From positions 478 to 64,477 of the forward strand of contig DASSSH010000026.1 in NCBI GenBank assembly GCA_035708525.1: 64,000 bases of DNA. The letters run 5' to 3'. This DNA is from Candidatus Methylomirabilota bacterium (lineage in GTDB: Bacteria; Methylomirabilota; Methylomirabilia; Rokubacteriales; CSP1-6). Below are positions 1,367 through 61,424 of the stretch, piece by piece. Position numbers and translations under genes: made by a program. Under the pieces are notes generated by a model. The model worked only from the letters and a program-made list of their open reading frames with translations. It was not told the origin of the DNA and ran no database searches. The stretch's first letter is position 1. Every line of letters begins with the position of its first letter.

Positions 1367-1956
1367 CCGCCCTCGAGGAGCTCGCCGCCCTGCTCGCAGA
1401 GCTCGAGCGGGCGCGCACATCCATCATGGCCCTGGCGCGTGGCAACTGCGCGCAGGAGCCCTGGAGGCTCTATCCGGGCGAATACGGGATCTTCGACCGC
1501 AAGACGCATAGCCAGTTCTACTACCACTCGCACGAAGGTGCCCGGCACGAGGCCGGCCACTTTCACACTGTCCGCCTCTTCACCGATCGCTCGGTGCATC
1601 TGGTGGCCATCTCCATGGCCGAGACCGGCTGGCCGCAGGCGCTGTTCACCGTCAACGGTTGGGCCATCGGTGACGCCTGGGAACCACCGGAGACGCTCAA
1701 GCAATACATTCGCCGATTCCACATCGGGCCGGGCCGAGGGCCCGCGCCACTGGTCCGGTTCATCAACCTGATGTTTGAGGCCTTCACCCTCGAAATGGAG
1801 CAGCTTCAGGACGACAAGGAGCGTGTGCTGCGGGCTTACTGCGCCGCCCATCCGGGGAAGGATCCCCTCCAAGACTGGTCGCTGGAGATCCTGAGCCGGG
1901 TCGAGATCGACATGAAGGCCCGTCTCGCCGGGCCGGCAGAAGTGGTCAGGCCTTGA
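1363..1956 (+). CDS. hypothetical protein with a His-rich motif (YYHSHEGARHEAGHFH), possibly metal-binding
   Basis: The GTG start overlaps the upstream stop (GTGA at 1363-1366). Third-position GC is coding-like. The protein sits between the DUF3179 gene and the TlpA-like gene, with overlapping junctions on both sides. Confidence 0.65.
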   Translation: MTALEELAALLAELERARTSIMALARGNCAQEPWRLYPGEYGIFDRKTHSQFYYHSHEGARHEAGHFHTVRLFTDRSVHLVAISMAETGWPQALFTVNGWAIGDAWEPPETLKQYIRRFHIGPGRGPAPLVRFINLMFEAFTLEMEQLQDDKERVLRAYCAAHPGKDPLQDWSLEILSRVEIDMKARLAGPAEVVRP

Positions 1957-2516
1957 TCCGCGCACGGATCCTCGCCGTGCTCGTCGGGGTGGTCGCGCTC
2001 GGCGGGGTCTTGCAAGTGGCCGCCGTGGGCCCGGATCCGACGCTCGGGGCGGATCTCTGGCGGGTCGCAGGCATCGCGCGGGCCGGTCGCCAGGTCGCCG
2101 CGCCGTCGTTCCAGCTGCAGGATATCGCCGGGAACCGGGTCGAGCTGCGCCAGCTCCGCGGGCGAATCGTGCTGGTCTACTTCTGGGGCTCGTGGTGACC
2201 GCACTGCACGAGGGAGTTGCCCTCGGTGGATGGGCTGCACGAGAAGCTGGCGCGAGAAGGGCTCACCGTTCTCCTCGTGAACATCGGGGAGACCCGTGAG
2301 ACCGTGGTCCGGGCCCTGGCGTCGCGCCGCTACACAGCCCCCGTGTTCCTCGACTCGAACGGCAAGACCAGCGAGTCCTATCGCGTCGCAGGCACCCCCA
2401 CGGTGTTCATCATCGGTCGGGACGGGATGATCCTCGGGAGTGCCGTGGGCCCTGGCCCCTGGGCGGAACCGGCCGGGCGCGCGCTGCTCGAAGCGCTGCT
2501 CCGCGGTCGAACGTAA
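1953..2516 (+). CDS. TlpA/ResA-like thiol:disulfide oxidoreductase, selenocysteine-containing (UGA 2196-2198 read as Sec)
   Basis: ORFs 1953..2198 and 2217..2516 are in the same frame. The junction reads VLVYFWGSW-[TGA]-PHC-TRELPSV, the thioredoxin-fold WCxxC site. There is an N-terminal membrane anchor and a C-terminal AGTPTVFIIGRDG motif. The TTG start overlaps the upstream TGA (TTGA). Confidence 0.8.
2204..2229 (+). promoter_or_regulatory. putative bacterial SECIS hairpin for UGA 2196
   Basis: CGAGGG-AGUUG-CCCUCG at 2209-2225. It can be extended by 4 pairs with a bulged A at 2208. The loop A lies 19 nt from the U of UGA. Confidence 0.6.
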
Positions 2517-46120: not shown

Positions 46121-46693
46121 CTACTGGTCGCGGCCCATCGTGTAGAACTCGCGGTTCGGCCGCATGGCCGCCAGATTCGCCATGCGGTTGGACAGGTTGA
46201 AGAAGGCCGCGACCGCGCCGATGTCCCAGATGTCCGACTCGCTGAACCCGTGCCGCCGGAGCGGCTCGAAATCAGCCTCCTCGATGCCGGCCGAGTCGAG
46301 CGTGACCTTCACCGCGAAATCCAGCATGGCCCGCTGGCGCGGCGTGAGGTCCGCGTGGCGGTAGTTTGCGGTGATCTGGTCGGCGATCAGGGGGTGCTTC
46401 GACAGGACACGGAGCGCCGCTCCGTGAGCGACCGTTCAGTAGGCGCAGGAATTGGCGGCGCTGACAGCGACCACGATCATCTCGCGCTCGGCACGCGACA
46501 GCCCCGACTCCCCCCGCATGAGGACCTCATAGTAGTGGAAGAAGGCGCGGAAATGATCGGGCTTCCACGCGTACGCGAGAAAGACATTGGGGGTGAAGCC
46601 GGATTTCTTGGCGATCGCCTCGATGGCCTGCTTGAGGTCGGCGGGCAGGTCGGCGGGGTCGGCCACGGGGAAGCGGCTGATCGGCTCGGTCAT
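46121..46693 (-). CDS. AhpD-like peroxidase-related enzyme, selenocysteine-containing (UGA at 46438-46436 read as Sec)
   Basis: ORFs 46436..46786 and 46121..46327 are in the same frame. The junction reads EREMIVVAVSAANSCAY-[TGA]-TVAHGAAL, the CxxCxxxH AhpD core motif with TGA at the second Cys. ATG 46693 overlaps the upstream stop (ATGA). Confidence 0.82.
46408..46426 (-). promoter_or_regulatory. putative bacterial SECIS hairpin for UGA 46438
   Basis: CACGGAGC-GGC-GCUCCGUG, an 8-bp stem (or 7 bp with pentaloop CGGCG), starting 9 nt after the UGA. Confidence 0.6.
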
Positions 46694-47778
46694 GGCTCGG
46701 GCATCCTTTCGTATCGCCCGTACTCGCGGGCGGCCTCCATGAACCACCGCACGCAGTCGGGATTGGCGCGGGGGGGCAGTTCGCACGAGGTGGAGAGCAC
46801 GTAGCGAGAGCGACGTCCGACCGTGCCGAGGCAGCGCCGGACCTCGGCCTCGATCTCGGCCTTGGTGGCGCGCTCGAAGATGGTCACGTCCACGTTGCCG
46901 ATGGCCACGACCCCGCGCTGGTTGCCCAGCGTGACGAGTCGATCCAGCTGGTCCACCTGGAGCGCCGGGTCAGCCTGCTGGTCCAGGTCGATGGTGATGG
47001 CCACGAAGCCGGCGTCCATGAGGTCCTCGTGGATCTGGTGCGTCGTGCCGCAGATGTGCACCGTGGTGCCGACCTTCTTCGCCTTGAAGTAGTTGACCAG
47101 CTCCGTGTGGTACGGCTTGATGAACTCGCGGTATGTGTCGGGCCCGACCAGCGAGCAGGAGGCGGTCGGGTCCGAGTAGCTGAGGCCGATGCGGGTCTCG
47201 AGGACGGCGTCGCCGACGCGCTTGGCGTACTCCGTGGCGAAGCGCATCAGGTCGTGGACGAACGCGGGATCGTCGATCGTGTCGAGGCACATCAGCTCCG
47301 GGTTCCGCATCAGCATGGCGATGGTCCAGGGACCGACGTTGACGGAGCCGAGGGCGCTCGGGAGCCCGGCCGCGGAGAGGGCGGCGCACTGCTCGAGGAA
47401 CGCCGGCAGCCGACCGTCGCGCTTGGGGTCGGGGATCTCGAGGGTCGCCAGCTTGCTTTTGTCCTCCTGCAGGATGTGCCGGTCGATGGACGGCACCACG
47501 TAGTCGGAGTACTTGACGCGGCAGCCGGTGGCTTCGGCCTCCTTGGCCAGGTCGTTGAAGGCGATCATGATGTCGGGCTGGTACCGGTCGTAGTAGTTGA
47601 GCATCGCCTTCGCGGCCTTGGTGGGATTGGTGCAGTACTCTTCGATCGACAGGCCGTCGAGGCAGCCGGCGAACACGCCGGCGATCGGGTAGGCGGGCAC
47701 GCGATCGGCGAAGCTGCCCTTGTAGGCGGCGACGACGCGCTCGCGCGGCGTGTAGTGGGTCTTCTGCTCCTGCGGCAT
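46690..47778 (-). CDS. uroporphyrinogen decarboxylase (URO-D) family protein, MtaA/CmuA-like methyltransferase type
   Basis: URO-D fold motifs (RVPAYPI, FNDLAKEAEATGC, HICGTT). Confidence 0.85.
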   Translation of the reverse strand: MPQEQKTHYTPRERVVAAYKGSFADRVPAYPIAGVFAGCLDGLSIEEYCTNPTKAAKAMLNYYDRYQPDIMIAFNDLAKEAEATGCRVKYSDYVVPSIDRHILQEDKSKLATLEIPDPKRDGRLPAFLEQCAALSAAGLPSALGSVNVGPWTIAMLMRNPELMCLDTIDDPAFVHDLMRFATEYAKRVGDAVLETRIGLSYSDPTASCSLVGPDTYREFIKPYHTELVNYFKAKKVGTTVHICGTTHQIHEDLMDAGFVAITIDLDQQADPALQVDQLDRLVTLGNQRGVVAIGNVDVTIFERATKAEIEAEVRRCLGTVGRRSRYVLSTSCELPPRANPDCVRWFMEAAREYGRYERMPEP

Positions 47779-57664: not shown

Positions 57665-59296
57665 TCAGCGCTGATACTTGGTCGGAGTCCGGCGGGGCAG
57701 GAAGAAGACGGGGCGCGACATCCGGCCCACCGGCACCTCGATCAGCACCGGCCGGTCCATCTGGACGGCCTCCGAAACGAGACGGCCCACCTCAGTGGGT
57801 TCTTTTGCGCGCAGGCCACGCACCCCGAAGGCCTCGGCCAGCTTCATGAAGTCGGGGTTGGAGAGCTCGGCGCCGTAGGCGCCGCCCCACGATTCGTCCA
57901 GGTCCCGCGCGACGTTGCCGTAGGCGTTGTCGTTGAAGACCACGCTGACCACGTTGATCTTGTACCGGACGGCGGTGGCCAGCTCCTGGGCGTTGTACAT
58001 GAAGCCGCCGTCTCCCGAGACGGCGACGACCGGCCGATCCGGCTGGGCGACCTTGGCTCCCAGCGCCACCGGGAAGGCGTAGCCGAGGTTGCCGGAGTAG
58101 GACGAGCTCAGATAGGTCCGCGGCGCGTACACGGGCCAGAACGGGCGCGAGTAGTAGCCGATCTGGTTCATCCCGGCGACCAGGATGGCGTCCTCCGGCG
58201 TCCCGGCGCGCAGGCTCTTGAGGATCGAGGCCTGAGGCTCCTGGGTGGCGAGGGCGGCCACCTGACCCCGCAGCGCCTGGAACTCCGCCTTGCGCGAGGG
58301 CTTCGGCGGCCCGGCGGCGCGCAGTCGCTCCAGCAGCGCTTCGAGCGTTGCCCGCCCATCGCCGACCAGTCCCACCGCCACCGGATGATTGCGGCCGATC
58401 TCTTCCGGGTCCACGTCGAGCTGGATGATGCGCTGGTCGCGCTGGAAGGAGACGAGCGCCAGTCGTGAGCCCACGGCGAGCACCACGTCGGCCGCGTGCA
58501 CGTGGGCGCGCAGCGGTGATTCGCGCCAGAAGGCCGCGCCCAGGGCGAGATCGCTGTGGTCGCTCACGGCGCCCTTGCCCTCCGCGGAGGTGACGACGCC
58601 CGCCTGGAGGTGCTCGGCGACCGCGGCCAGGGCATCGTGGCAGCCCGAGAGGTGGACGCCGCCGCCGGCGTAGATGACGGGCGCCGCGGCGGCGAGCAGC
58701 AGCTCGGCGGCGCGGTCGAGGTCGGCGGCCGGCGCGGGGGACCGGGTGACGGTCGGGGGCTCGATGAGCTCGACCTCGCCTTCGTCCTCCATGGTCTCCG
58801 GCGGCATCTCGATCTCGACGGGGCGGGGCCGGCCGGTCCGGAGCTGCGTGACGGCCTCGCTCACGGCCGCGGGGATCTCGCCGATCTCGAGGACGCGCCG
58901 GCGCCACTTGGTCACGGGAGCGATGGCGTCGAGCTGGTCGTTGACCTCGTGGAGGAGCCCGATGTTCTTGCCGATGCTGGCCCGCGGGATCTGGCCCGCA
59001 ATCATCAGGACCGGGGAGGAGGCGGCGTAGGCCGTGCTCAGCCCGGACATGGCGTTGAGGAGCCCGGGGCCCGGGACCACGAGCGCGGTGCCGAAGTCTC
59101 CGCCGGCGCGCGCATAGCCGTCGGCCATGAAGCTCGTGGCCTGCTCGTGGCGTGTCGCGATGAAGCGGATCCGCGGCTCGTCGCGCAGCGCCGCCATCAC
59201 GCCGTAGAGCTGGACGCCGGGCAACCCGAAGATCACCCGCACGCCGGCGGCGAACAGGGAGCGGACGAGCGCCTCCCCGCCGGTCATCACCGCCAT
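57665..59296 (-). CDS. thiamine pyrophosphate-dependent enzyme (acetolactate synthase large-subunit-like)
   Basis: [53 protein letters not shown]. Confidence 0.9.
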
Positions 59297-59452
59297 CGTG
59301 TAAGCTCCCCTCGCAGGGCCTCGTGCGTGCCAGGCATCACGACGGGGCAGTATACCAGACGGGCGCTCGCTTGACGCCCCGCCGCCTCGCTGCAACAATC
59401 CGGGCGACGCCGAGGCGACGCGAACGACCCATTCGAGCCGCGGAGGGGAGCC

Positions 59453-60016
59453 ATGCCCATCACACGGATGCTGGAGCTCGACGAGCTGGAGCCGGCCCTG
59501 CGCGAGGCGGCGGAGAAGTGGGGCGCCCAGGGCGGCAACGTGAACATGCACCGGGTATTCGGCCAGATGCCCGACTTCTTCAAGAAGTTCGTCGAGTTCT
59601 ACGGGCCGCTGGTCAACCACGGGCGCGTCCCCGTGCGCGTCAAGGAGCTGGCGCGCATCCGTGTGGCCAACCTCAACGAGTGCCACTACTGACAGAAGAC
59701 CCGCTACGCCTTGGCAAGGCGGGTGACGAGGGAAGCCGAGCTCGAGCGGGTGGACGACTTCGAGGCCGCTGAGTTCAGCCCGGCGGAGAAGGCCGTGCTG
59801 CGCTTCACCGAGGCTTTCTACCGCGACCACAAGACGGTTCCCGATTCGGTGTGGAGCGACTTGCGCCGGCACTACAGCGAGCCCGAGATCATCGAGCTCG
59901 CCTGGACGATCGCGGCCTACATCATGCTGGGCAAGCTGATCTACGCCTTCCGCATTCCGTACGGTGACGAGGGCAGCGGGCCCCGAGGCGGAGCCATCCC
60001 GGAGGAACGCCCATGA
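59453..60016 (+). CDS. carboxymuconolactone decarboxylase/AhpD-like family selenoprotein (UGA 59690-59692 read as Sec)
   Basis: ORFs 59453..59692 and 59711..60016 are in the same frame. The junction reads VKELARIRVANLNECHY-[TGA]-QKTRYAL, i.e. CxxC with TGA at the second Cys. The downstream FSPAEKAVLRFTEAF...EIIELAWTIA is CMD-like. The stop overlaps the next gene's start (ATGA). Confidence 0.78.
59707..59721 (+). promoter_or_regulatory. putative bacterial SECIS hairpin for UGA 59690
   Basis: CGCCUU-GGC-AAGGCG, starting 14 nt after the UGA. An alternative outer pairing is CCCGC/GCGGG (59700-59723). Confidence 0.5.
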
Positions 60017-60807
60017 CCAACGATCTCCTGGAAACGGTCAAGGACGGCGTGGCCGTCCTCACTCTCAACCGGCCCGAGCGGCTGAACGCCATGTCGCGGG
60101 CGATGCTCGACGCGCTGCTCGAGGCGCTGCCCCGCCTCGCGGAGGATCCGGCCGTCGGCGCGGTGGTGCTCACCGGCGCCGGGCGCGGCTTCTGCGCAGG
60201 GGGCGACGTCAAGGCCATGGCCGAAGGGCAGGAGCTGGGCGGCGACACGCTCGAGGACAAGGCCCAGGCCCTGCGCGGCCGCATGGAGGTCTCGCGCTGG
60301 CTGCACGAGCTGCCCAAGCCCACGATCGCCATGGTGCGAGGCGCCGCCGCCGGCGCCGGGCTCTCCCTGGCGATGGCCTGCGACATGCGCATCGCCGGCG
60401 ACAGCGCGCGCTTCGGCACGGCCTTCGCCCGCGTCGGGTACTCGGGCGACTTCGGCGGCAGCTTCTTCCTCACCCAACTGGTGGGGACGGCCAAGGCGCG
60501 GGAGCTCTACTTCACCGCCGATCTGCTGGACGCCCAGCAAGCCCTGGCCCTCGGCCTCGTCAACCGCGTCGTATCCGACGCGCGGCTCGAGGAGGAGACG
60601 ATGGAGCTGGCCGGGCGCCTGGCGCGCGGCCCGCGCATCGCCTATCGCTACATGAAGCGCAATCTGAACGCCGCCGAGAGCGGCACGCTCAAGGAGCTGC
60701 TGGATCTGGAGGCCCTGCATCACACCCGCTGCGGGATGACCGAGGACCACCGGGAGGCCGCGCGGGCCTTCGTGGAGAAGCGGGAGCCGGTCTTCCGCGG
60801 CCGCTAA
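60013..60807 (+). CDS. enoyl-CoA hydratase/isomerase family protein
   Basis: VVLTGAGRGFCAGGD, KPTIAMVRGAAAGAGLSLAMACDMRIA, EDHREAARAFVEKREPVF. Confidence 0.9.
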   Translation: MTNDLLETVKDGVAVLTLNRPERLNAMSRAMLDALLEALPRLAEDPAVGAVVLTGAGRGFCAGGDVKAMAEGQELGGDTLEDKAQALRGRMEVSRWLHELPKPTIAMVRGAAAGAGLSLAMACDMRIAGDSARFGTAFARVGYSGDFGGSFFLTQLVGTAKARELYFTADLLDAQQALALGLVNRVVSDARLEEETMELAGRLARGPRIAYRYMKRNLNAAESGTLKELLDLEALHHTRCGMTEDHREAARAFVEKREPVFRGR

Positions 60808-60903: not shown

Positions 60904-61203
60904 TTATCTGTCCCGTCTGCGCTTCCACGTGCGAGGATCACGAGCGCCGTGGAAAATCGCATACACGAGGATCTCAGAGGTCTCGACCTCGTAGAAGATC
61001 GCGTATGGGAATCGACGAACGAGTGCTCTCCGCATATTGGGGTCGACCAAGGCATACGCCTCGGGATGCCGCTGGATCGACGCGAGCGATGCGTTGACGG
61101 TGGCAAGGAAGTCGGCAGCCAACCGAGGTGCCTGCCGATGGTACCAGAGGTGGGCCTCGTCAAGATCGAGCTCTGCCTCCGGGGTGAGGCGAAGTCGCTT
61201 CAC
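60904..61203 (-). CDS. type II toxin, ParE/RelE superfamily
   Basis: EAELDLDEAHLWY, RRFPYAIFYEVETSEILVYAIFHGARDP. The junction overlaps the antitoxin gene. Confidence 0.8.
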   Translation of the reverse strand: MKRLRLTPEAELDLDEAHLWYHRQAPRLAADFLATVNASLASIQRHPEAYALVDPNMRRALVRRFPYAIFYEVETSEILVYAIFHGARDPRTWKRRRDR

Positions 61204-61424
61204 TTCCGGCGTTGGAGCCTAGCACGTACCTCTGCCCAGGGCTTCGCGGCGGATGGATTCCGAGCGTGGGCACGCCGCCGCCGCGCGAGTTCCTTGCGCT
61301 GCCCATCGGTCACAGGAACGGCTTCGGGCGTCTCGACGAGGCTGTCCCAGATCTCCTCGAGTAGCTGCAGCCGATCAGAGACGCTGAGCGATTGGATCTC
61401 TTTGCGTACGATGCTCATGGGCAA
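61200..61424 (-). CDS. putative addiction-module antitoxin component
   Basis: LSVSDRLQLLEEIWDSL.....VPVTDGQRKELARR matches the addiction-module-component family pattern. Confidence 0.72.
   Translation of the reverse strand: MPMSIVRKEIQSLSVSDRLQLLEEIWDSLVETPEAVPVTDGQRKELARRRRAHARNPSAAKPWAEVRARLQRRK

Follow-up and report, generated by a model that had tools for sequence, protein, structure and literature searches.

The question raised by this locus is whether an in-frame TGA at positions 59690-59692 of the window, the 64-kb stretch of DNA from a Candidatus Methylomirabilota bacterium that was analyzed here at its full length, ends a short gene or encodes selenocysteine (Sec) within a longer one. 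Read directly from the sequence, 59453-60016 of the forward strand is one frame with this internal TGA. The first open reading frame (ORF), 59453-59692, terminates in NLNECHY followed by TGA, that is, in RIRVANLNECHY, and the same frame is open again from 59693 to a terminal TGA at 60014-60016. An earlier note on this DNA had described two ORFs in frame with an NECHY-[TGA] junction, and both are seen in the sequence. The predicted read-through product has 187 residues, with 79 amino acids before Sec80 and 107 after it. The explanation that best accounts for the locus as a whole, and that is strongly favored, is a single gene for a 187-residue selenoprotein with the AhpD/CMD fold, whose UGA is read as Sec through a hairpin of the selenocysteine insertion sequence (SECIS) type.

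The two halves of the frame belong to one protein domain. With U written as C, the fused protein matches Pfam CMD with 36.2 bits against a cut-off of 23, and the match runs over residues 40-120, across codon 80, which bears out the assignment to the CMD/AhpD family made in the earlier note. Taken separately, the N-terminal half scores 20.7 bits, below the cut-off, and the C-terminal half has no match. Relatives of the protein (P0001-P0085) were compiled from protein searches. A word-indexed search that covered 5.8 billion proteins returned 15 relatives, every one of them a C-terminal half of 102-125 amino acids starting a few codons from the position of the TGA. When 1.84 billion cluster representatives (50% identity) were searched exhaustively with phmmer, using the 79-residue N-terminal half as query, 70 matches were obtained, approximately 51 of which terminate exactly two residues past the first Cys (CHY, CRY, CEY, CDY, CAT and others), while 12 carry C-x-x-C there and the remainder are frameshifted fragments or noise. 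In all nine of the full-length or longer CxxC homologues that were inspected among these 12, by alignment or by eye, Cys stands at the column of the TGA, and distant relatives (L051-L060) read NECHY-C-Q (NECHYCQTIH). The placement of the TGA at the second Cys of the CMD-family CxxC, as first proposed in that note, therefore stands: the homologues do not end at this point, and Cys is present at the aligned column.

At the DNA level, homologous loci were obtained from close relatives (L001-L007, L014-L016 and L021-L047) and from seven distant Sec lineages (L008, L010, L012 and L017-L020) that share approximately 32-51% identity in the N-terminal half. The TGA is kept in all 44 loci that cover codon 80, the seven distant lineages included, and in every locus with enough 3' sequence the frame continues into the conserved C-terminal half, except in the decayed copies L046 and L047. 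Each of the 13 loci with enough downstream sequence that were inspected individually (seven close and six distant) stays open past the TGA. Comparison with six close relatives gives dN/dS values of 0.09-0.26 in the N-terminal half and 0.18-0.45 in the C-terminal half, and the part 3' of the TGA is therefore translated. No Cys variant of the close family was found among 27 metagenomic loci, one of the two search patterns having targeted the Cys form. Sequencing error was considered as the cause of the TGA and was rejected.

Were the TGA a true stop, the locus would be either a pseudogene or two small genes, one for a 79-residue N-terminal protein and the other for a separately initiated C-terminal protein. 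The C-terminal half has neither a conserved start codon nor a ribosome-binding site. At the second codon past the TGA the window has AAG, and relatives have GTG, ATG, TTG, CGC, CAG or TCC, and the first candidate start, the TTG at 59711 that the ORF finder chose as the beginning of the second ORF, sits within the hairpin. The Pfam domain that spans the TGA, the purifying selection on the C-terminal half and the Cys found at the exact column in longer homologues all argue in the same direction. A pseudogene is not expected to show a stop fixed at one codon across lineages that are 32-50% identical, each with an in-frame conserved second half. In favor of a true stop, TGA is the commonest stop codon here, and the gene calls in all public sources cut the homologues in two, so that public databases hold them as two short hypothetical ORFs (15 of 15 C-terminal halves and approximately 51 of the 70 N-half cluster representatives). 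Gene decay does happen as well: L046 and L047 (Ga0209375_1000482 and Ga0066676_10001576), two soil contigs, retain the TGA and carry a frameshifting deletion of approximately 45 codons that begins approximately 9 nt after it and takes out the hairpin and the beginning of the C-terminal half. These two appear to be decayed copies, which indicates that the gene can be lost. On balance a true stop is extremely improbable, and we consider it very likely that 59453-60016 is a single gene encoding Sec. The half-protein entries are a systematic mis-annotation of a family that mostly uses Sec.

Given that long open frames are common in a genome of 68% GC, the window was also scanned for continuity of coding composition across stop codons. 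In all six frames, a TGA was counted when it was flanked on either side by 40 or more open codons and both flanks had GC3 above 0.8 and GC2 below 0.6. Only three TGAs in the 64 kb qualify, and all three lie at the redox Cys of CxxU or UxxC motifs.

The hairpin lies at 59707-59721 and starts 14 nt after the UGA. Its stem, CGCCUU/AAGGCG, pairs 59707-59712 with 59716-59721 around a GGC loop at 59713-59715. Most relatives close the helix with a seventh pair, A-U, where the window has A.G (59706/59722), and with this position the SECIS-like element spans 59706-59722 of the forward strand. Apart from L046 and L047, the close-family loci (33 of 35) share one and the same 15-nt core, CGCCTTGGCAAGGCG, and the neighboring codons vary synonymously. 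In distant members the peptide encoded here is altered (VALARQ, TASGRR, IAWARR, AVPAVQ) and the helix is retained in the same register: UUGCCUU pairs with AAGGCAA around GGC in L010, CCGCCU with AGGCGG around CGGGU in L012, UCGCCUG with CAGGCGA around GGC in L018, and CUGUGCC with GGUGCAG around GGC in L020. In an alignment of 14 sequences, 91.8% of the cells of the 7-bp helix are paired, versus 33-66% when the partners are slid by one to three columns. Five of the seven pairs change on both sides, with a covariation score of 0.359 versus 0.130 in shuffles, a value reached by none of 500 shuffles, and RNAalifold independently gives the same helix. The GG at +24/+25 from the U of the UGA is invariant in all 14 sequences, within loops that read GGC, GGG, GGCG or CGGGY. 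The 6-bp hairpin that had been noticed 14 nt downstream of the UGA is thus confirmed, and is conserved with compensatory changes.

Several observations weigh against the hairpin, and they have to be set beside this comparative support. Folding of 77 nt of the window RNA as a single sequence does not recover it (z = -0.59 versus shuffles), and the 21-nt core reaches z = -1.66. A 41-nt fold prefers a competing structure with an outer stem ACCCGCU/GGCGGGU (59699-59705 with 59718-59724), which in the window RNA has an energy of -14.2 kcal/mol versus -8.4 kcal/mol for the conserved hairpin, and close relatives retain part of this competing fold (75% paired, covariation 0.145). Furthermore, covariation was counted on the very sequences from which the structure had been deduced, which inflates the paired fraction. 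The invariance of synonymous sites over the hairpin is marginal when taken alone (5 of 6 versus 29 of 71 sites, p = 0.056). Since the window RNA folded alone does not single out the hairpin, the support for it is comparative, and the compensatory changes in independent lineages are stronger evidence than the paired fraction. Across the family, the competing fold appears clearly less supported than the hairpin with the GGC loop. When the SECIS region is folded, as the earlier note had asked, RNAalifold on the alignment gives the hairpin and the window RNA alone favors the competing fold.

A rival reading is that the hairpin is a by-product of the conserved peptide Y-A-L-A-R-R, devoid of any function in the RNA. 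This peptide is indeed conserved in the close family, folding does not stand significantly above shuffles for either the 77-nt segment or the 21-nt core, and the test of synonymous suppression remains marginal. The codons that are used tell against it. The core is coded TAC-GCC-TTG-GCA-AGG-CGN, and in the genes of the window TTG makes up 3.9% of Leu codons, GCA 3.0% of Ala codons and AGG 3.8% of Arg codons, so that the three successive rare codons have a joint expectation of approximately 4e-5 from the codon usage of the window, and yet 33 of the 35 close-family loci have them unchanged. This rare-codon usage is a stronger argument for the hairpin than the synonymous-invariance test. In distant members, moreover, the peptide changes while the helix is kept by double compensatory changes and the GG of the loop is fixed. 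For these reasons a by-product of the peptide is considered very unlikely.

The fold and active site of the protein are those of the AhpD group. A profile search of the PDB found PA0269 (2ijc/7xw1/2o4d) with an E-value of 1.8e-15, and also 2oyo, 2prr, 6k40, 3c1l and the Bmp8 debrominase. Among full-length Cys homologues P0029 is the closest (37% identical); its AlphaFold (AF2) model was obtained with an alignment of 61 sequences at a pLDDT of 91.8, and it is on this stand-in for the 187-residue product that the all-helical AhpD-like fold was judged, the single-sequence AlphaFold model being unusable (pLDDT 37.5). The P0029 model superimposes on 2prr, 6k40, 2oyo and 3c1l, "peroxidase-related" structures of approximately 185 residues, with TM-scores of 0.76-0.83, and on Bmp8 with 0.75. 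The proton relay of AhpD comprises Glu118, Cys130, His132, Cys133 and His137 in M. tuberculosis and Glu36, Cys48, Tyr50, Cys51 and His55 in PA0269, and both Cys and the last His have been termed invariant in the AhpD-like family (PMC3141380). The target reads E65-x11-C77-H-Y-U80-x3-R84: it retains four positions of the relay, the second Cys being represented by Sec, and differs at the last one, where Arg stands for His. Glu65 (59645-59647, forward strand, as are the codons that follow) lies 12 residues before Cys77, is conserved in 90% or more of the 61 aligned sequences and aligns to the "IEL...C" segment of PA0269. The motif C77-H78-Y79-U80 (TGC CAC TAC TGA) occupies 59681-59692, its first Cys being invariant in the 61 sequences, and the predicted Sec80 codon is the TGA at 59690-59692.

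Arg84 (59702-59704) stands at the i+4 position that corresponds to His137 and His55 of AhpD and PA0269. The earlier note had read Arg instead of His after the CxxC and had suspected a divergent subfamily. The first point holds in the sequence, and the second is correct because Arg recurs among both Sec and Cys members: within the subfamily it occupies i+4 in seven of the eight Sec lineages and in six of the eleven Cys forms. His is found there in more remote CxxC relatives that share the local motif (NECHYCQTIH). As judged from these alignments, the substitution is a character of the clade. Sec is also the prevalent form within it, with approximately 51 Sec versus 12 Cys cluster representatives, a ratio of approximately 4:1 or 80% Sec.

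With the catalytic Cys located, a second way of reading through the TGA can be weighed, namely recoding in which no Sec is inserted, either by near-cognate insertion of Trp or Cys stimulated by the hairpin or by a reassigned code. TGA is the stop of 21 of the 34 confident ORFs in the window, the selenoprotein gene included, and since it ends these ordinary ORFs the genetic code is not reassigned. Downstream structures can stimulate read-through in general, and this counts for near-cognate insertion, as does the lack of Sec machinery in the sequence at hand. Still, the position pairs with the catalytic Cys of a redox CxxC, which is the classic signature of Sec. A small apical loop containing guanosine is given as the hallmark of the bacterial SECIS in the passages considered here of the 2005 study of Sargasso Sea selenoproteins (PMC1088965), and the hairpin, a stem-loop just 3' of the UGA, agrees with that description in position, size and loop. 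In addition, the phylum is documented as rich in Sec in the passages considered of a 2026 review (PMC13188914). The probability of recoding in which Sec plays no part is accordingly small. Rfam, at gathering thresholds, has no match in the window.

It counts against Sec decoding that selA, selB, selD and tRNA-Sec are all missing from the 64-kb window and from every locus obtained. ARAGORN, run on the window and on 25 loci, finds neither a tRNA nor a tRNA-Sec, and Pfam annotation of 30 further ORFs of the window gives no selA, selB or selD. For this reason, we infer the Sec trait of the genome from the three candidates in the window and from the literature on this Sec-rich phylum, in which one Methylomirabilota metagenome-assembled genome (MAG) is listed with 63 predicted selenoprotein genes (PMC13188914, in the same passages). 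The search of 185,579 species genomes gave matches in three MAGs only, with 85-88% identity. They are labeled Methylomirabilia, Methylomirabilota and Rokuibacteriota, and each has the TGA together with an identical hairpin. Synteny with the window is seen in a metagenomic contig of 150 kb (L022, WNGF01000091.1), which carries a PAS-histidine kinase, a thiamine-diphosphate (TPP) enzyme on the opposite strand, the selenoprotein and an enoyl-CoA hydratase (ECH).

The second of the three candidates is another AhpD-like gene, which was found by the scan of coding composition; tblastn of the fused protein against the window gives no paralogue, this gene being too divergent. It lies at 46693..46121 on the reverse strand, with its TGA at 46438..46436, reads NSCAY-U-TVAH, gives a fused protein of 190 amino acids and is a clear member of the TIGR01926 "peroxidase-related enzyme" family (213.7 bits versus a cut-off of 81.8). 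Its hairpin, at 46426..46408, begins 10 nt after the UGA and has 8 bp, CACGGAGC-GGC-GCUCCGUG. The GGC apex that the two AhpD-like genes had been said to share is therefore present in both. The ATG of this gene overlaps the stop of an upstream gene of the URO-D family (46690..47778, reverse strand) as ATGA, so that it is translationally coupled too. The third candidate has a TlpA/ResA-like thioredoxin fold and runs from stop to stop over 1779..2516 on the forward strand, with a TGA at 2196-2198, a hairpin at 2209-2225, a FWGSW-U-PHC motif and an N-terminal hydrophobic segment. It matches Pfam AhpC-TSA with 85.9 bits and Redoxin with 74.6 bits, is under all NCBIfam cut-offs (the best being ResA with 90.6 bits versus 170), and has an uncertain start, TTG 1953 or GTG 1977.

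The mechanism that is proposed for the selenoprotein gene starts with the UGA at 59690, which would be decoded as Sec with the help of the hairpin at 59706-59722 and the two invariant G of its apical loop. In the manner established for Sec decoding in bacteria, the hairpin would act as a SECIS, for which binding of SelB is predicted, and would recruit SelB with Sec-tRNA(Sec) to the ribosome, leading to Sec at codon 80. By analogy with AhpD (PMC3141380 and the mutagenesis cited there), Sec80, at the second position of the CxxC, is the presumed nucleophile. It would attack an oxidized or electrophilic substrate, for which a hydroperoxide, the sulfenate or disulfide of a peroxiredoxin, and other small electrophiles are candidates. 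Cys77 would then resolve the adduct to give an intramolecular selenenylsulfide, which a cellular thiol reductant would reduce again. Arg84, one helical turn past Sec80 and on the same face as the His that it replaces, probably stabilizes the selenolate or thiolate electrostatically. This role is preferred to that of a base because Sec needs no base to ionize. A conserved Arg is likewise known to stabilize the thiolate anion in peroxiredoxins.

A role as thiol/selenol oxidoreductase is somewhat favored. Two points weigh against a more definite assignment of function. The mechanism of AhpD is not simply transferable because the "invariant" His is Arg, and the target and all clade members tested fall under every curated NCBIfam cut-off. 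The target scores 42.1 bits with TIGR01926 (cut-off 81.8), 53.7 with NF053654 (cut-off 310) and 23.5 with NF041238, AhpD_rel_CFYUT (cut-off 175). Across the clade members tested, the best curated model is NF053654, "YciW-related (seleno)protein", with 45-63 bits versus 310, and TIGR01926 gives 27-59 bits versus 81.8. Assignment as a gamma-carboxymuconolactone decarboxylase (PcaC), judged on the CxxC site and the gene context, is not supported: a CxxU redox motif is present, whereas the motifs of PcaC-type decarboxylases lack CxxC (PMC3141380), and there are no pca genes nearby, as a beta-ketoadipate gene context would require.

The arrangement of the gene is that of a short operon with an ECH. 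Upstream of the ATG at 59453, in the intergenic DNA that separates the selenoprotein gene from the divergent TPP-enzyme gene (reverse strand), a promoter-like TTGACG-17 nt-AACAAT at 59371..59399 of the forward strand is a consensus match only, with 9 of 12 positions matching and one site observed versus 0.1 expected in shuffles. A Shine-Dalgarno-like GGAGGGGA was read at 59442..59449, forward strand, a few nucleotides 5' of the ATG. Homologues begin with an identical N-terminus, MPITRMLEL, and share the layout of the single coding sequence (59453..60016, forward strand), with both halves conserved. At the 3' end, a Shine-Dalgarno-like GGAGGA for the ECH gene (60001..60006, forward strand) lies within the selenoprotein gene, six nucleotides 5' of the ECH ATG. 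The ECH gene, an enoyl-CoA hydratase/isomerase of the crotonase family, occupies 60013..60807 of the forward strand (Pfam ECH_1, 218 bits), and its product is under every NCBIfam equivalog cut-off. Its ATG (60013-60015) overlaps the stop of the selenoprotein gene (60014-60016) as ATGA. The translational coupling to ECH that the earlier note had described is therefore found here and in many relatives, though it is not universal. In this two-gene operon, both proteins would be made together because of the ATGA coupling.

An ECH orthologue with 85-95% identity is found downstream in 21 of the approximately 30 close-family loci that have at least 300 nt of downstream sequence, and in most cases the ATGA overlap is present as well. 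Three relatives, L015, L021 and L026, have approximately 1.36 kb of extra sequence with one additional ORF between the selenoprotein stop and the ECH start, and the ATGA coupling is broken. The insert of L015 (6356-7693) is a gene of the phosphoesterase family (Pfam PF04185, 247.6 bits), and those of L021 and L026 are of equal length. ECH is not present in L001, L005, L027, L028, L038-L040, L043 and L044. The co-occurrence of CMD and ECH genes, suggested earlier as a check, is seen in most close loci and fails in approximately 30% of them and in distant members. Two independent distant Sec lineages adjoin genes of acyl-CoA metabolism: the gene in L008 (2-2480) adjoins an AMP-binding acyl-CoA ligase and an SDR, and that in L012 (1671-8240) adjoins a TetR regulator, an AMP-binding ligase, a thiolase, a hydrolase and a second ligase. 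The protein of L012 has 275 amino acids after the Sec codon, with an extra C-terminal region that has no Pfam match. Elsewhere the neighbors are unrelated (P450, molybdenum hydroxylase, binding proteins). The recurrent neighbors, which come from a handful of loci only, hint at a link with acyl-CoA metabolism, and a link to ECH that is functional and not merely positional is possible but doubtful.

A different function for the family can also be considered. The clade with E-x11-CxxU-x3-R could be a distinct and mostly Sec-dependent enzyme family instead of an AhpC-recycling adaptor, in which the selenol acts on a small-molecule or CoA-linked substrate together with acyl-CoA enzymes and the Arg replaces the His relay as an adaptation. 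Its partners would be ECH here and the acyl-CoA ligase, SDR and thiolase beside independent lineages, and its reaction could, for example, reduce a disulfide, persulfide or peroxide linked to CoA, or resemble the reductive step of Bmp8. We consider this specialization improbable.

No gene for AhpC or another peroxiredoxin is adjacent to the selenoprotein gene, whose neighbors are the TPP enzyme, ECH and a ParE/antitoxin pair. The TPP-enzyme gene (57665-59301, reverse strand) is acetolactate-synthase-like, has three TPP Pfam domains, is transcribed divergently from the selenoprotein gene and has a counterpart with 65-68% identity in L014 and L022-L025, located in the same position. The ORF finder adds approximately 190 spurious codons to it, which cross the selenoprotein gene on the opposite strand. 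Directly 3' of ECH, on the opposite strand, lie the overlapping genes of a ParE-family toxin (60904-61203, reverse strand, 47.4 bits with Pfam) and of an "Unstab_antitox" antitoxin (61200-61424, reverse strand, 59.1 bits). In L001 this place is taken by a PemK toxin gene.

Selenoproteins of this kind are already known, because the target fits the published definitions of the CMD selenoproteins with CxxU. In the passages considered here, the Sargasso Sea study of 2005 (PMC1088965) has an "AhpD-like protein" (COG2128/TIGR01926, CxxU) and a "CMD domain-containing protein" (Pfam02627, CxxU) among its selenoprotein families, the GOS study of 2008 (PMC2398784) has an "AhpD-like 2" family (pfam02627, CxxU) with 70 Sec and 207 Cys sequences that is commoner in non-marine samples, and the 2026 review (PMC13188914) lists AhpD-like and CMD selenoprotein families and further AhpD-related models. 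The target shares with the CMD/"AhpD-like 2" selenoproteins of Zhang and Gladyshev the PF02627 domain, the CxxU, the existence of Cys homologues and a SECIS-like hairpin with a small G-containing loop, and by the published definitions it belongs to them, exemplars such as MBW1767730.1 being compared by description only. The passages covered make no mention of the linkage to ECH or of the Arg substitution of the target clade. Within these passages, four features of the clade are undescribed: the Arg-for-His signature, the dominance of Sec, in contrast to the ratio of the GOS study, the coupling to ECH in many loci and the missing curated model.

The comparison with characterized proteins defines the place of the target further. 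With AhpD of M. tuberculosis (Rv2429) and PA0269 (2ijc/2o4d/7xw1) it shares the helix-turn-helix site Glu-x11-Cys-x-(His/Tyr)-Cys, Tyr79 of the target being equivalent to Tyr50 of PA0269, whereas it has Sec for the second Cys, Arg for the i+4 His and no adjacent ahpC. Its length of approximately 185 residues and its "peroxidase-related" topology also set it apart from the 145-residue PA0269 and from the topology of M. tuberculosis AhpD (Foldseek to 1knc is poor). The TIGR01926 proteins (2prr, 2oyo, 2pfx and D. radiodurans AhpD, 6k40) have the same fold, length and CxxC/U site, with TM-scores of 0.78-0.83 for the model of the Cys homologue, but the target stays at 42.1 bits, under the cut-off of 81.8, and the members of TIGR01926 retain CxxC/UxxxH. 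NF053654, "GroundWater_YciW", belongs to the AhpD superfamily, has Sec-containing members and is the best-scoring curated model for the target clade, but with 45-63 bits against 310 the two families are clearly separate. The Bmp8 debrominase (6ohi/6ohj), a thiol-dependent reductive dehalogenase of the CMD fold, has the same fold (TM-score 0.75, profile E-value 6e-10) with an identity of approximately 20%, and there is no sign of genes for halogenated substrates near the target. Bmp8 nonetheless demonstrates that the cysteines of this scaffold can act on small molecules and not on peroxiredoxins alone.

No concept is changed by these results, given that AhpD/CMD selenoproteins with CxxU and a bacterial SECIS have been known for two decades, and the gene is useful for annotation and as a target for biochemistry. 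Recognition of the Sec codon restores a full protein of the AhpD fold and enlarges the selenoproteome of the Methylomirabilota/Rokubacteria, for which the largest selenoproteome among bacteria has recently been predicted. The dominance of Sec in the clade, at approximately 80% of clusters, is the reverse of what is found in most selenoprotein families. The clade is therefore a reasonable candidate for a new family model, and it raises the question of the role that the AhpD scaffold may play away from AhpC.

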